A stretch of DNA of 64,000 bases, taken from contig JAJTYH010000002.1 of assembly GCA_021463465.1 (NCBI GenBank), positions 265,799-329,798 of the forward strand. The letters are read 5' to 3'. Below are positions 33,001 to 42,000 of this stretch, in pieces. Each line of letters opens with the position of its first letter. Position 1 is the stretch's first letter. The position numbers are program-made. This DNA is from a bacterium. GTDB lineage: Bacteria; Patescibacteriota; Dojkabacteria; SC72.

Positions 33001-36000
33001 GAAATCCGGACGTGAACTGTAATACGCCCCCCATATCTGGCGCAATTTGGCTTTAGTCTTGTCTAAAAGCTCTTTGTCAGAATACTTATAGGATAGGGTT
33101 ACCGTGACATTTCTAACCAAATCCTCTGACAAATCCCGATACTTTTTACTCTCTAAAACTGATGAGACTACACTATTAACATCCATACTCCAGGATTATC
33201 CCATTAATTGAGATGGATGGCAAAAAAGTGTATAATGCCAGGTCAAAACTAACTATAATTCAATTAAGTTTTTTCTAAGTTTTATGGAATTCGCTAATTG
33301 GTTACTAGCTTTTCAATTCCAAAAGAAGTTTTGGAAATTTTGATTATCATCCCCATATTGGCCACCCTTATCAGTATAGGTCGATACGTTATAGGCCTTA
33401 AAACATTAGGTATATATGCACCAATTGCATTAGCAATTGCATATAAAATGACTGGACTTAGATACGGTTTAGCCCTCACCTTTTTAGTCATTATTGCATC
33501 ACTTATCGGCTACAGATTTTTAAGTAAAGTGCGAATGCACTACACTACCAGAGTTGCAGCTAACTATACCCTGCTCTCAATCTTAGTGATTACTGGAATT
33601 ATTACCTTCGATTCTATTCCTTTTTTAGGACTTAATAATTTTAATCAGATTAGCCCAGTAGGAGTAGTATTAATCGCTACTCTTTCAGATTTTTTCATCA
33701 AAGCCTACATCAAAAAGAGTCTATTTACTTCAATGCGAGTACTACTTGAAACCTTACTCATCTCAGTAATTGGATGGTATATAATCCGTTCCCCAAACAT
33801 TATCGAACTAATATTCCATAACCTTTGGATTATCCCACTCTTAGTTGCAGTAAATCTACTTCTTGGTAGATACAGAGGCTTCAGACTCAAAGAAGTTTTA
33901 AGATTTCAAACTATCCCTAATGATGCGGATACTCGCACTAATAAAAGCTAACCGAACTGTCCTGGGAATCAACCGCAGAAACCAGGAATATGTTCGGCCG
34001 TATAATCCAGTATCGCAGAGAGCTATTGCTGACAACAAAATATTAACTAAACGAGTGCTTGCTAAAGTTGGAATTCAAACTCCTCAAGTATACAAAGTAG
34101 TAAGAACCAAAAAACAATTGCAGTTTTTAGATTGGAATGCCTTACCTAAAAGTTTCGTCCTCAAGCCTAATCAAGGTACTGGAGGTAACGGTATTGTTGT
34201 CTTTTTTGGTAGAAAAAAGAACTCGCTTGAATGGATTCGCCCTAACGGGACTACAATGAGTACTAAAGACATTGCGCTCCATATCGAAAAGATTTTGGAT
34301 GGAAGCTTCTCGATGGGTAACAAACAGGATGTGGCCATCATAGAAGAGCGAATCAAGATAGATAAAGTTCTTAAACCCTACATCTATAAAGGAGTTCCTG
34401 ACGTGCGTGTCATTACATTCAACCGAATCCCTGCAATGGCTATGTTAAGACTCCCTACTAAAAGATCTGACGGTACAGCCAACTTACACTCGGGTGCTAT
34501 CTGCGTAGGAATCGATATGGCATCAGGCCTTACCACTACCGCAATGCACTTAAAGAAGAGGCCATTTGTCGAAGATACATACGTGCAAACAGAATACACA
34601 TTGGACTTGGAACAAAACCTACCTCTGAGAGGAATCAAAATCCCATACTGGGACGAAATTCTTAAGATTGCAATCAAATCACAAGAGGTATCAGAATTAG
34701 GATACCTTGGGGTTGATATTGCAATTGATCTGGACAAAGGTCCGTTGGTTTTTGAAATTAATGCCAGACCAGGGCTCGGCATTCAGGTAGCTAACATGGA
34801 AGGTTTGCGCAACCGACTTGAGAGGCTTAAAGGTTTAAAGGTTAAGAGTACTAACCATGCAATACGCTTGGCTAAGAATCTTTTTGGAGGTGAGATTGAA
34901 GAAGAAATTGAAAGCTTGAGTGGTAAGCATGTAGTAAGTGTAGTAGAGAAGATTCAGGTATTTCACCTAGCTAAAAAGATCGGCTCAAAACAAGACGGTA
35001 CCGGTAAGAAAGAGATGGTTAATGCAATGATGGATACAAGCAAACTGACATCCCGTATCAATGAAAAGTTGGCTTCAACAATCGGACTGTATCCTGATAT
35101 AAAGCGATTCAAAGACCTTCACCTACCCTCTTTCGACTCCCTTCATGATGCACAAGAGTATCTTGAGCAGAACGAACTCAAGCTAATACAAGATACCAAG
35201 ATCAATCGTATCGCTAAAATTGTTTATGATAATAAAGTAATTCTAAGGCCCGTCTTTGAAGTGGTAATTCGCATCGCAAAAGAGATTAAAACCTTTGAAA
35301 TGTTAGTTGATAGGGAGAAACAGATGGGATATTCTGTAGTCATTGGGCGAAAAGATCTAAAAGATTACTTAATTGACCCAAGCAAGACCTTTACACAATG
35401 AGCAATAAGAACTTTTTGAAAATTGCAGGAAATATTCATCTTTCATACTACGTTCAAGCCGCTGACGAGTTGGGAATAAAATACGAGATTGTAATCCCAA
35501 GTCTTACTGCCAAGTTCGACTTTGGAAAAAGACACTGTTACATCAATAACACAGTAATTCCACTAAACAATGCCCCTAGTTCAAAGCTTGCCAGAGTCAA
35601 ACATTTTGCTAACCAGCTTATGGAAAGACATAATGTACCTGTTCCGAAGCAACAGAAGCTTAATAAAGAGATTGATGCATTGGCTTTTTTTGGAAAGTTC
35701 CAGAACATAGTAATCAAGCCTTCACAAAATTTGGGAGGCAAAGGTGTTTCAATCCTGCCAAAAAATGAAGAAGAGGTACTTGAGTCATTCAAATTCGCTA
35801 AGGAACATGATCGGTTTGGTCACGTATTAGCTGAAGAGTATATCCCAGGTGATAATTACCGAGTACTTGTTTTAGGTGATAAAGTGCTTAGTGTTATCAA
35901 AAGAATTCCTGCTCATGTGACTGGAGATGGCAATTCAACTATCCAAAGTCTTATTGAAAAGACAAATGAGATTCGTAAAAAGAACATGCTTATGCCAATT

Positions 36001-39000: not shown

Positions 39001-42000
39001 CAGAAGTTCCTTTGTTGGAACTATCTGTGCGGAAGGAATCAGGCCTTCATCTACCCACGAAACCTTTTTCAAATCAATCTTACCAGCATATAACTTGGCA
39101 TAAAGTGATTGATCTTTTTCAATAGCCTGGCGTACTCTCCTAAATCCTCTGAAATACGACACATCTTTGCTATAAATTCCAGGTTGATTAGTATCGCCAA
39201 GACCTCTTTTCAATCTGTATGCAACATCAAAAGCGTCCAAGGGTTTAGTAAAACCTCGCAAGACTTCGTAGAGGTTCCTAAAACTAAGTTTCTCGCCTAC
39301 ATATACACCATAAACCATCAATGCACGTTTCATAAGGTTCTGATAATCCAAAACCCCCATCATCTCTTCGTTATACATGGCTAAACCCTCTTCAATATCC
39401 AAGTATGATTTCACATTGGCATTGTATAGCGCTGGTACACCTGATAAAGCTCCATTATGCGATCTCAAGACATGCGTGCCTACCTCATGAACAATACTCT
39501 TTTTGACTAAGAAGGGGGTCTTTTCAATATTCCTATCAAGAAAAATTGTCTTGCCTTTAGTTCCGGTCTTCAGACCATTTTTAGCAATGTTCATAGACTC
39601 TTTTACCCCCCACTCTGTAAGACCCAACTCCGCTAAAACTATTTCTATAGCCTTCTTAATTTGATCAAAATGCAAGTTTTCTTTACTCCCTCTATCCTCT
39701 GCCAATTGGTACTTCTTCACTTTTCGTTTTAAGACAAGACAAGCATTCCTAAAGAGTTTCTCCGTTGGAACCTTGTAATGACGTTTTGACATTACTGTGA
39801 AAGCCTCATTTTGTCCTATGGAATCCATAAGGTCATCCGCATCTTTCTTATCTGAAATTAACTGTATGTAGAATTCAGAGATCCTAGGGTCAACATCAGA
39901 CACTCTCACAAGACTCTTTAGTTCCGAAAATATTTTCTCATTCTGATTTGGTCTTTTAACGTATTTGAATTGCGGACTATAAATGCTGGACGCAAGGAAT
40001 TTAGACTTCTCAGCCTCTAGGTTATCTGGTGTAATAGCCAATGCTGTGGGCAACCTTAGTTCTACTAAAAGCTTACTCACTTCATCTAACAGCATCTCTT
40101 TTTTACTCCTCTTAAACCAGAACATAATAACTGTCTTAAAATAATTCGGACATTTAATTACTTCTCATGGACTTAGCGAAGCTTCTCTGCCCAGACGCAA
40201 TCAACTCTAACGCAATCCCTGTACCTTTTGCAACACAATACATAGGCTCTTCGGCTACATGGGCAGGAACACCTGTAGCCCTTGTTAGTAGCTTATCCAA
40301 GTTTCTTAACATTGAAGTACCTCCACTCATAACCATGCCTCGATCAATGATATCAGCAGCTAGTTCAGGTGGAGTTTTCTCTAAGACCCCTTTAATTGCC
40401 TGGATTATTTTGGATAACGGAAGTTTCAAAGCCTCAGCTACATCATTAGAATTTACTATTAAGGTTTTAGGTAATCCCCCTGCCACATCCCTTCCCTTTA
40501 CACTCATCTCCTTAGGATTTTCTAACTTCATTGCAGAGCCCACCGTTACTTTAATATTCTCAGCAGTCTGTTCTCCTATTAAAATCCCTCGCTTCTTCCT
40601 CATGTATGCGATTATGGCTTCATTTAAAGTATCTCCAGCAATTCGAAGCGAATTGAATTCAACTATCCCATCTAAAGAAATAACTGCAATCTCTGCTGTA
40701 CCACCGCCCAGGTTTACAATCATGTTGCCCGAAGAAGTATTAATAGGTAGACCTGCTCCTAAGGCCGCTAGGACAGGCTCAGGAAGGAGATTTACTTTAC
40801 GTGCACCTGCGCCCATTGCGGCCTTGATTACGGCTCTTTCCTCTACCGAGGTTATTCCAGCAGGTACGCTTATCATTACCTCTGGTTTGATAATCTTGCT
40901 TACTCCTAGAGTCTTGTTAAAAAAATATGTAAGTAAGGCTTGAGTGACCCTGGAGTCCGCAATTACTCCATTACGAAGAGGTCGTTTGGCTACAATATTG
41001 TCCGGAGTCTTTCCAATCATCTCCTTAGCCTCCTGGCCAACAGCAATGACGGTAAATGTATTGGTATCAATTGCTACAACAGTAGGTTCAACCAAAACAA
41101 CCCCCTCGCCTTCAATGAAGACAATCGAGTTGGCCGTACCTAAATCAATTCCTACTTTTTTAGAAAGAGAGAACATTATGCTAGATTATATGATAATTGG
41201 GCCATATAACCAACCTTTACTCCTCAGGAATAAGTTACCAAGTCTTTACTTAAATTAAATATGGACTGATCAAATTCAGCTCCTGGCGGAAGAAAGGCAA
41301 TAACCCCTGAACTCGAATTTTTAAAAGCTTTTTCTGACATCTTTCTTGCATGAAAAAATGCTTCACCCATATCGTACTTTCGACAAAGTTCTGCAAAGTC
41401 TTTTGAGCGATAGTAGTCACTTCTTAAATTATCCTCAACATTCCTCTCATGTTCATCATCAACAGCTCTCTTATACGTGCTATTTTTTATCCCAAATGAA
41501 TTATATTCCATTTCAGTTACCTCTCTTGTTATCTGTCTAAAGTCTTGACTTTGACTAGGTATACCGAAGTACTCTAGAGAACTTATCACTTGTATTCCAT
41601 TTGAAACCTTTTTCAGTTCGCGTTCAAGGTAATCTCTAAGTTCAAAAACTTTGTCGTGATTAGACTTTGTATCCATTCTCTTTGGCCTCAAAAGCTCATG
41701 ATCCATTATAGGACAGATTATATTAATTGGAATTCCTATGAGTTCTAAAGTGAGTGGCAACGTAAGTTCTTCCAAAAGTACAGCTAAATAATCGTCAATT
41801 CTCTTAACCTTAATTGTTTTATCTTTCTGCACGTACTCAAAGTTTTGTTCAGCCCCAATTACCTGCTGATCGCCATCCCTATCGTAATAGTACCTTAAGC
41901 ACATAGGAGAATAGCTGTCTATGGGCTTTCCCGTCAAAACAGCTAGATATATGTAACCTTTTACCAATTTATACTTTTCTGGAGAGATTTTGTGAAAGTA

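Follow-up and report, generated by a model that had tools for sequence, protein, structure and literature searches.

What could a bacterium of the candidate phyla radiation (CPR) build with four different ATP-grasp ligases, two peptidase domains and a membrane protein encoded side by side? The question is raised by a Dojkabacteria genome (lineage SC72, assembly GCA_021463465.1), of which we analysed a window of 64,000 nucleotides (nt) on contig JAJTYH010000002.1 (positions 265,799 to 329,798; all coordinates below are positions within the window). Five co-directional genes, here called g1 to g5, are met by a sixth, g6, on the opposite strand. In order, they are predicted to encode a seven-transmembrane (7TM) protein, a ligase fused to a retropepsin-like protease, two ligases resembling cyanophycin synthetase, a RimK/LysX-like ligase and a homologue of the human carboxypeptidase MATCAP. 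Each of these components belongs to a recognisable type, and ATP-grasp clusters that await an explanation are not uncommon. The unit is best classed as a previously undescribed form of ATP-grasp ligase/peptidase system, conserved across a whole CPR class. The reading that we favour, at somewhat less than an even chance and by analogy with better studied systems, is that the block is an expanded Rlo/Rim-type system, which would assemble and length-trim an acidic, aspartate-containing peptide chain at the membrane.

The six open reading frames (ORFs) are tightly packed. On the forward strand, g1 (33298-33951, TTG start, 217 amino acids (aa)) overlaps g2 (33920-35401, 493 aa) by 32 nt, g2 is joined to g3 (35398-36369, 323 aa) through a shared ATGA, a gap of 11 nt separates g3 from g4 (36381-38039, 552 aa), and the overlap between g4 and g5 (38036-38974, TTG start, 312 aa) reads TTGA. 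The stop codons of g5 and the convergent g6 (38971-40125, reverse strand, 384 aa) overlap by 4 nt. A sigma-70-like promoter candidate, TTGAGA-17-TATAAT (33208-33236, forward strand), matches at 11 of 12 positions. It sits in a 111-nt intergenic gap, 62 nt upstream of g1, and is the top candidate of its kind within 32300-42700. An earlier note on this DNA had listed the same ORFs, junctions and promoter-like site, and every one of them was recovered exactly. The note had also described g6 as facing the operon. The convergent orientation and the 4-nt overlap stand, but g6 is probably not an independent gene. Directly upstream of it lies a mreB paralogue (40154-41176, reverse strand; PF06723 E-value (E) 1e-128), the second MreB of the window. 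The two genes share a strand, and nothing like a terminator occurs in the 28 nt that separate them, so that both are probably read from one transcript. The GC content of the block (0.386) is close to that of the window (0.382); the block is thus compositionally native. An Rfam scan found no structured RNA in the cluster and only tRNAs elsewhere in the window. Every one of the six ORFs gives a significant family match and has orthologues in 63-79 other genomes, and on this evidence the ORFs are not due to chance.

We found the block throughout the Dojkabacteria. One genome per GTDB species was scanned for the main clade, giving 105 relatives of g4, all from Dojkabacteria-type metagenome-assembled genomes; the homologues of g4 and g6 carry the names Candidatus Dojkabacteria or candidate division WS6. 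The window proteins were compared by tblastn with 80 of these species-level loci, which also supplied the orthologues (63-79 per gene) used for residue conservation. Presence was counted only in loci with enough sequence upstream (62), downstream (54) or on both sides (46). By this count, g2 and g3 are each present in 62/62 loci and g1 in 61/62, g5 is present in 54/54 and g6 in 53/54, and all six genes occur in 44 of the 46 loci evaluable on both sides. The main-clade order is always rplJ-rplL, a gap or inserted genes, and g1-g2-g3-g4-g5, followed on the opposite strand by g6 and the mreB paralogue. In an exhaustive HMMER search, orthologues scored above 430 bits, followed by a sharp drop to a sister group at 229-281 bits. 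This deep clade, also Dojkabacteria, shows 36-43% identity and shares the motifs ASxSQGG and PExYLN. Its gene order is different: rplL and rplJ are on the reverse strand, then come g1, g2, g3 and g5 on the forward strand, g6 on the reverse strand and g4 on the forward strand, with no mreB nearby and with downstream genes that differ from those of the main clade. The six genes still stand together there despite the changed order and flanks, which indicates that they are functionally linked, and this retention through rearrangement is the strongest evidence for a joint function. The co-location on which the earlier note's proposal depended is thus borne out in both clades.

The same note had called the block accessory from its position after rplL, where rpoBC would normally follow. 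This proved wrong, as rpoBC is absent after rplL throughout the Dojkabacteria loci sampled and the block is a class-wide core locus. An 'accessory island' was likewise rejected on the native GC content and on the same place being occupied in nearly all evaluable genomes.

The first two genes connect the block to the Rlo system. The g1 protein matches PF14402 (7TM_transglut) with E 5e-21 and 75.7 bits (cutoff 25). On the NCBIfam RloB profile it covers positions 313-505 of 508 only, which correspond to the C-terminal 7TM part, and its hydropathy plot has seven hydrophobic segments in 217 aa. It is predicted to be a compact membrane protein that corresponds to the 7TM module of RloB and lacks the transglutaminase domain. 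In g2, residues ~11-306 match TIGR02291 ('alpha-L-glutamate ligase-like') with E 1.5e-83 and 280 bits, under the equivalog cutoff of 314, and PF14397 with E 6e-67 and 226 bits (cutoff 31.4). This ligase half is 41% identical to a Legionella RloC that is itself encoded in a canonical rloABC operon. A linker leads to residues ~335-493, a stretch of ~160 that shows homology to the retropepsin-like family of RimB and RloA. PF05618 matches this C-terminal domain in 15 of 21 g2 orthologues (best E 8.7e-11); used as a profile, the domain retrieves the PDB entries 9G59, 9G58 and 2PMA at E ~1e-5, with the catalytic motif aligned as MDTGxxTS. Residues K82, E142, E143, R163, D266, E279 and N281 are invariant in 66 orthologues, while in the retropepsin motif D372 is kept in 65, T373 in all 66 and G374 in 59 of them. 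We read g2 as a putative RloC-type ATP-grasp ligase fused to a RimB/RloA-type retropepsin-like domain.

A triad of a 7TM-transglutaminase protein, an ATP-grasp ligase and a retropepsin-like protease was reportedly predicted by Iyer et al. in 2009. The earlier note took such triads to be uncharacterised, which is outdated: the RloABC operon, known from P. aeruginosa, Vibrio and Legionella, has been studied genetically and structurally in P. aeruginosa, its product still being unknown (Lormand et al., mBio 2025; PMC12239564). The window unit shares with RloABC the RloC-type ligase half of g2, the RloB 7TM module in g1 and, at the C-terminus of g2, a RloA/RimB-homologous domain with the D-T-G motif. 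However, the periplasmic inactive transglutaminase domain of RloB is missing from g1. RloA is a separate protein, secreted by means of a signal peptide, whereas the protease is here fused to g2 and has no signal peptide; it is therefore predicted to be cytoplasmic like RimB, unlike RloA. No separate protease gene of the RloA type is present in the cluster. The cluster instead adds three further ligases and a MATCAP-type peptidase, and its host is a CPR bacterium, whereas RloB matches are 96% proteobacterial (PMC12239564). With neither a transglutaminase domain nor a secreted protease, this is not a canonical Rlo system.

The next two genes point to cyanophycin synthetase. The g3 protein matches the NCBIfam CphA profile (E 3e-67, profile positions 165-470) and CphA1 in the PDB (E 1e-37), and is a predicted stand-alone G domain of cyanophycin synthetase, of the ATP-grasp type. 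Published work on CphA1 assigns R309 to acyl-phosphate stabilisation and has the incoming Asp held by R323 and N394 through its beta-carboxylate and by R458 through its alpha-carboxylate; G456 assists at the oxyanion, and E215 grips an Arg side chain of the polymer (PMC9427784). In CphA2, the Arg-gripping role is taken by D212 (PMC10273328). The equivalents in g3 are R155 (R309), R169 (R323), N235 (N394), G294 (G456), R296 (R458), D272 (D431) and E288 (E450). Residues K107, R155, R169, N235, D272, E288, N290 and G294 are invariant in 75 orthologues and R296 is found in 74 of them, and the CphA1-equivalent pocket residues are also kept in the deep clade. Since g3 retains the whole Asp pocket of CphA1 and the acyl-phosphate Arg, we infer that it joins Asp, or an amino acid much like it, to a terminal carboxylate.

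The g4 protein aligns to CphA1 residues 204-579. Its AlphaFold (AF2) model has a mean predicted local distance difference test (pLDDT) score of 91 and a predicted template modelling (pTM) score of 0.85. The best PDB fold match of this model is CphA2 of Gloeothece (7TA5; E 1.7e-40, template modelling (TM) score 0.74/0.70, full length), as against a TM score of only 0.44 with GshF. The model gives g4 the predicted N + G + truncated M architecture of CphA2, with an M-domain stub of ~120 aa that has lost the P-loop GxNGKT. Residues K205, R260, R274, D383, E402 and N404 are invariant in 79 orthologues, and equally invariant are three changes relative to CphA1, namely S346 for N394, E408 for G456 and Y410 for R458. 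At the E215/D212 position no acidic residue is conserved, the residue being mostly Thr in g3 and variable (K, E or Q) in g4. In the comparison with CphA2, which covered the acidic residue for Arg, the large-loop Asn/Ser and the Gly-x-Arg that follows the Mg-binding Glu, g4 does not show the residues that bind cyanophycin and beta-Asp-Arg, as seen at S346, E408, Y410 and the variable E215/D212 position. Judged from this pocket, g4 probably elongates with a building block other than that of canonical cyanophycin.

The two proteins are paralogues, with 34% identity across the G domain. Both match the ATP-grasp halves of GshF (E 6e-54 for g3 and 1.5e-46 for g4) and of N-acetylglutaminylglutamine synthetase (E 4e-36 and 1e-33), but a GshA or GNAT partner domain is lacking and the fold of g4 is far closer to CphA2. 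With CphA2 and CphA1 the pair shares the domain build of g4, the residues for ATP, Mg and acyl-phosphate in both proteins, and the Asp pocket in g3. It differs by the replaced pocket residues of g4, by having no active M domain (the Arg-adding part of CphA1) and by having no cyanophycinase. No Mur-ligase-type domain was detected in the six cluster proteins or the scanned neighbour proteins, and g3 has no M domain. Without an active M domain and with a changed pocket, the unit is neither CphA1 nor CphA2; CphA2 has been described as cyanobacterial (PMC10206079). Canonical cyanophycin is an unlikely product, because the g4 pocket is changed, the P-loop of its apparently dead M domain is lost and the Arg-binding acidic residue is conserved in neither g3 nor g4; we rejected it as a candidate.

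Outside the Dojkabacteria, the nearest relatives of g4 that we scanned (n = 5; P0252, P0253, P0255, P0258 and P0260) are proteins of 1250-2400 aa with two or three CphA-G-like ATP-grasp modules per chain. Their fusion partners are a PGA_cap/CapA domain of the poly-glutamate capsule type (in one of the five), acylphosphatase plus TPR, AMP-binding (adenylation) and MmgE/PrpD domains, and they appear to be uncharacterised multi-ligase assemblies. Such tandem modules are consistent with a paired action of g3 and g4 on a polymer.

The fourth ligase, g5, matches PF08443 (E 4.7e-11, 43 bits, cutoff 21) and TIGR00768 (E 2.4e-13, 50 bits). The latter score is far under the RimK family cutoff of 143, so that membership of RimK holds at the domain level only. 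In the PDB, g5 gives weak matches to LysX/ArgX and RimK, and it also weakly matches the MptN and CofF profiles. Residues K156, D210, R212, R226, D270 and E283 are invariant in 74 orthologues, and we regard g5 as a putative RimK/LysX-like ATP-grasp ligase. The RimK-RimB system for poly-glutamylation of ribosomal protein S6, with or without RimA, likewise combines an ATP-grasp alpha-L-glutamate ligase with a cytoplasmic retropepsin-like trimming protease, and g5 belongs to the RimK domain family. The differences from RimK-RimB are the low score of g5, the absence of an S6 gene or target nearby (rpsF is not in the 64-kb window) and the presence of a membrane partner and CphA-type ligases.

The convergent gene g6 matches PF08014 (E 2.5e-26, 92.9 bits, cutoff 27). 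A profile of its orthologues finds human MATCAP (7Z5G) with E 5e-23, aligning HEVGTH with HEIGTH, EEGLA with EEGLA, and the pattern KRG...DTS.PG...KD.VY. Human MATCAP chains are also the sole significant PDB fold matches of its AF2 model (pLDDT 91.5; TM scores 0.6-0.68). Residues H213, E214 and H218 (HExxxH), E245 and E246 (EEGL), K306, R307, Y324 and R326 are invariant in 63 orthologues. Sequence and model together identify g6 as a predicted cytoplasmic homologue of the MATCAP-family (DUF1704/QEGLA) zinc metallocarboxypeptidases, gluzincin-like in type. On TIGR02421, the QEGLA 'flavohemoglobin expression-modulating' family, g6 scores 108 bits against a cutoff of 338.65. The proteobacterial members of TIGR02421 that we examined are 628-663 aa long and have an extra N-terminal region like N-formylglutamate amidohydrolase (FGase) or an FGase neighbour.

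Compared with MATCAP/TMCP (KIAA0895L/KIAA0895) and the TTL/TTLL ligases, g6 is homologous to the former in sequence and fold, including the HExxxH, EEGLA, KRG and Y-x-x-G motifs, and in both cases a carboxypeptidase is linked to carboxylate-extending ATP-grasp ligases. However, there is no tubulin here and the ligases are not of the TTL family. The other bacterial homologues examined pair with an FGase-like domain, not with ligases. MATCAP/QEGLA proteins were seen on a plasmid of Vibrio sp. HDW18 (locus L003, 8107-10098) and on a 1.66-Mb plasmid of Sinorhizobium meliloti (locus L004, 7361-10101), in which an FGase-like PF05013 domain either precedes the MATCAP domain or is fused to it. ATP-grasp neighbours for proteobacterial MATCAP homologues were accordingly rejected, these replicons carrying the FGase-like domain instead; the sole exception is a 'GshB' gene that a Photobacterium transcriptome study lists beside the QEGLA gene.

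The ATP, Mg and catalytic residues of the ligases (66-79 orthologues), the g6 motifs (63 orthologues) and the D-T of g2 (65-66 of 66) are all kept. The six genes therefore look active, and the proteins look like working ones under purifying selection. What we observed directly is how the genes are built, which family and fold each protein has, that the catalytic residues are intact and that the clustering is conserved. Profile hidden Markov models and structure comparisons agree with all six family assignments that the earlier note had made from motifs. That note had also claimed that the whole unit matches no described pathway, and we too found none. The unit shares parts with RloABC, RimK/RimB, CphA2 and MATCAP/TTL and fails defining features of each. 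Our literature search returned no description of the six-gene unit, of bacterial MATCAP homologues accompanied by ligases, or of CphA-like genes in Dojkabacteria. It returned nothing that links DUF1704 with ATP-grasp or Dojkabacteria with cyanophycin, and QEGLA and DUF1704 were mentioned only incidentally.

How might such a unit work? Our preferred reading, still short of an even chance, takes it as a builder and trimmer of acidic chains, because its ligase clades activate and extend a carboxylate, mostly that at the C-terminus of a peptide, and both peptidase families act on acidic tails. Ligases of this kind include RimK, which works on S6 and on free poly-Glu, the G domain of CphA, which extends the cyanophycin backbone, and GshF, whose substrate is gamma-Glu-Cys. 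That ligases extending a C-terminal carboxylate should be accompanied by trimming peptidases, as proposed before, agrees with what the RimK/RimB pair, the G domain of CphA and MATCAP are known to do. RimB cleaves poly-Glu, and so does RloA, which needs at least 8 Glu (PMC12239564); MATCAP/TMCP take off a C-terminal Tyr and trim poly-Glu chains as well (PMC10499314). P. aeruginosa that has lost the RloA proteases dies in low-salt medium unless rloB or rloC is deleted too (PMC12239564); by implication, RloB and RloC produce something that has to be trimmed.

In the mechanism that we propose, the four cytoplasmic ATP-grasp ligases would extend a peptide chain by turning its carboxylate into an acyl-phosphate, to which an amino acid is then joined. 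The g3 protein would add aspartate or a close dicarboxylic amino acid. The g4 protein, with its CphA2-like build, would elongate iteratively, using a building block different from Asp and beta-Asp-Arg. The RimK/LysX-like g5 and the RloC-like half of g2 would add further residues, probably acidic ones. The retropepsin-like half of g2 would cut within the chain and g6 would remove C-terminal residues, the two together setting chain length as RimB does on RimK products. The 7TM protein g1 may dock g2 at the membrane and pass the product to or across the envelope. The product would be a non-ribosomal, acidic, Asp-containing oligo- or polypeptide different from canonical cyanophycin. From these likenesses we infer every substrate, the sequence in which the reactions run, the acidity of the product and what g1 does.

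Several points weigh against this reading. The system is known here from its genes alone, so that product, substrates and target are proposals. The ligase activity of RloC-type proteins is putative across that family, as is the transport role of g1, and the acidic product rests on the analogy with RimK, RimB, RloA and MATCAP and on the Asp pocket of g3 only. The retropepsin motif of g2 is DTS in the window and DTG in most orthologues, with DTN or NTG in two, so that some lineages may have a weaker protease. On a deep-clade contig of 12.5 kb (L090), g3 and g5 are followed by g6 on the opposite strand and by g4, while g1-g2 are not adjacent; the Rlo-like pair g1-g2 may therefore be separable from the module of the other four. 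A polymer-specific hydrolase such as cyanophycinase is not found in the cluster.

Among the alternatives, reversible C-terminal tailing of a ribosomally made protein survives best, although we consider it doubtful. The ligases would write a tail, which the retropepsin domain and the MATCAP homologue would erase, on the model of RimK on S6, LysX on LysW and TTL/TTLL on tubulin, with a C-terminus or an acidic side chain as the site. The enzymes suit this well. The RimK/LysX-type g5, the RloC-type g2 and the CphA-G-type g3 and g4 all belong to classes that act on a terminal carboxylate (PMC9427784), RimB trims the tails that RimK makes on RpsF (PMC12239564) and MATCAP is a protein C-terminal carboxypeptidase. 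The neighbourhood also offers candidate targets: the cluster adjoins rplJ-rplL in the main clade and in the deep clade (L085-L087), though the ribosomal pair is inverted in the latter, and the mreB paralogue adjoins g6 in 53 of 54 main-clade loci. However, neither the MreB paralogue nor L12 (L7/L12) nor any cluster protein has an acidic or conserved C-terminus (39-80 orthologues), and no small conserved precursor, carrier or target gene occurs in or beside the cluster in main-clade or deep-clade loci. The adjacency of mreB is lost in the deep clade. We thus rejected the MreB paralogue and L7/L12 as obvious targets, and the paralogue is probably not part of the system. Moreover, a tail-writer would have no need of the processive-polymerase (CphA2) architecture of g4, and a 7TM partner would not be expected for a cytosolic tag. 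A more specific version, quite unlikely in our view, is a Dojkabacteria 'tail code', in which the ATP-grasp ligases would write non-templated C-terminal tails on the MreB paralogue or a ribosomal protein encoded by rplJ-rplL and the MATCAP homologue and retropepsin domain would erase them. If true, it would be a prokaryotic counterpart, and possibly an evolutionary source, of the tubulin tyrosination/glutamylation cycle.

An intracellular storage polymer related to cyanophycin would be a useful reserve for auxotrophic, episymbiotic CPR cells, but we regard it as unlikely. Here g4 and g3 would build a poly-Asp-type backbone, g5 and/or g2 would take over from the lost M domain in attaching side-chain residues, and the peptidases would remobilise the store. 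Some members of the RimK/LysX clan ligate to side-chain carboxylates, and LysX/ArgX are among the PDB matches of g5. The full-length structural match of g4 to CphA2 and the G domain with an intact Asp pocket in g3 are consistent with such a backbone. So is the investment of ~7 kb in a genome that is likely smaller than 1 Mb (the largest Dojkabacteria contigs are 0.79-0.87 Mb). Yet the acidic residue that would bind an Arg side chain is not conserved in g3 and g4, the nucleophile pocket of g4 is changed, and the cluster has no Mur-ligase-type M activity, cyanophycinase or isoaspartyl dipeptidase. The 7TM/RloC module also points to the envelope and not to a cytoplasmic granule (PMC12239564).

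It appears improbable that the ligases, each adding one residue, make a small metabolite of two to four residues, for instance an osmolyte, a thiol or a cofactor tail. GshF, N-acetylglutaminylglutamine synthetase, CofF and MptN would be the models, and g3 and g4 do match the relevant halves of the first two, while g5 weakly matches the last two. Osmotic physiology is suggested by the role of the Rlo system in hypo-osmotic tolerance and envelope integrity (PMC12239564) and by a Photobacterium transcriptome in which a QEGLA gene and an adjacent 'GshB' gene are induced in low salt (PMC10308900). However, g4 retains the polymerase N domain and an M stub along with its closer fold match to CphA2 than to GshF, and an endopeptidase for long substrates, as judged from the requirement of RloA, and a protein-type carboxypeptidase are ill-suited to a tripeptide. 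Mere inherited synteny without joint function, in a slowly rearranging small genome, is very improbable: the flanking rplJ-rplL, mreB paralogue and trpS are equally syntenic within the main clade, so that synteny there is weak evidence by itself, but the six genes remain contiguous in the deep clade with other flanks and another internal order, start/stop overlaps join g1-g2, g2-g3 and g4-g5, and the families are mechanistically complementary, ligases with matching peptidases as in RimK/RimB and RloABC.

The expanded Rlo/Rim-type system that we favour would matter in several respects. About 7 kb encoding four ligases, two peptidases and a membrane partner is kept in nearly every species, although the genomes are apparently small, and such near-universal retention implies an important product. 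The cluster presents the Rlo-type 7TM/ATP-grasp module, which affects antibiotic tolerance and biofilms in Pseudomonas, in another and richer form, and it offers a handle on the question of the Rlo product. It contains a CphA2-like protein outside cyanobacteria that, its pocket being rewired, may make a new poly-amino-acid. Its ligase context for a bacterial MATCAP homologue, for which no published genomic context was found in our literature search, mirrors the antagonism of ligases and MATCAP on tubulin tails in eukaryotes. The cluster is thus a concrete route to a new peptide polymer or modification, as well as to the Rlo product.

We also noted several features around the cluster. The left boundary is marked by a strong terminator-like hairpin after rplL (32400-32421, forward strand), which has a 9-bp stem with 6 GC pairs and a T-rich tail. 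Between rplL and the cluster, a gene on the reverse strand (32407-33186) encodes a homologue of the Rmt/FmrO 16S rRNA G1405 N7-methyltransferases (195 bits on NF000466, cutoff 250; PF07091 E 1.3e-18). The Rmt/FmrO family confers aminoglycoside resistance. This homologue occurs in a few related loci (L001, L002, L005 and L007), most being without it. Its divergent promoter candidate (33223-33195, reverse strand) overlaps the candidate at 33208-33236.

The canonical mreB of the window (24919-25974, reverse strand) lies upstream of a run of co-directional genes. The C-terminal extension of the mreB paralogue is semi-conserved and basic/aromatic, for example SGERxFxFNRxFRR. Between this paralogue and trpS, two overlapping ORFs on the reverse strand (41224-42084, 286 aa; 42062-42580, 172 aa) have no Pfam match and are weakly conserved in L001 and L002 (29-35% identity). 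A 215-aa ORF between rplA and rplJ (30213-30860, forward strand), which has a lipobox-like N-terminus (LLALSAC), has no Pfam match and no relative among the 84 loci compared; its slot in L001 and L002 is filled by unrelated ORFs. Within the cluster, inserts longer than 300 nt occur between g4 and g5 in 11 loci, between g5 and g6 in 9 and between g3 and g4 in 4. In L001 (11661-13893), a glycosyltransferase of the GT4 family and a 274-aa gene of no known type are inserted between g4 and g5, and a gap of similar size is found at the same junction in L006, L008 and L079.

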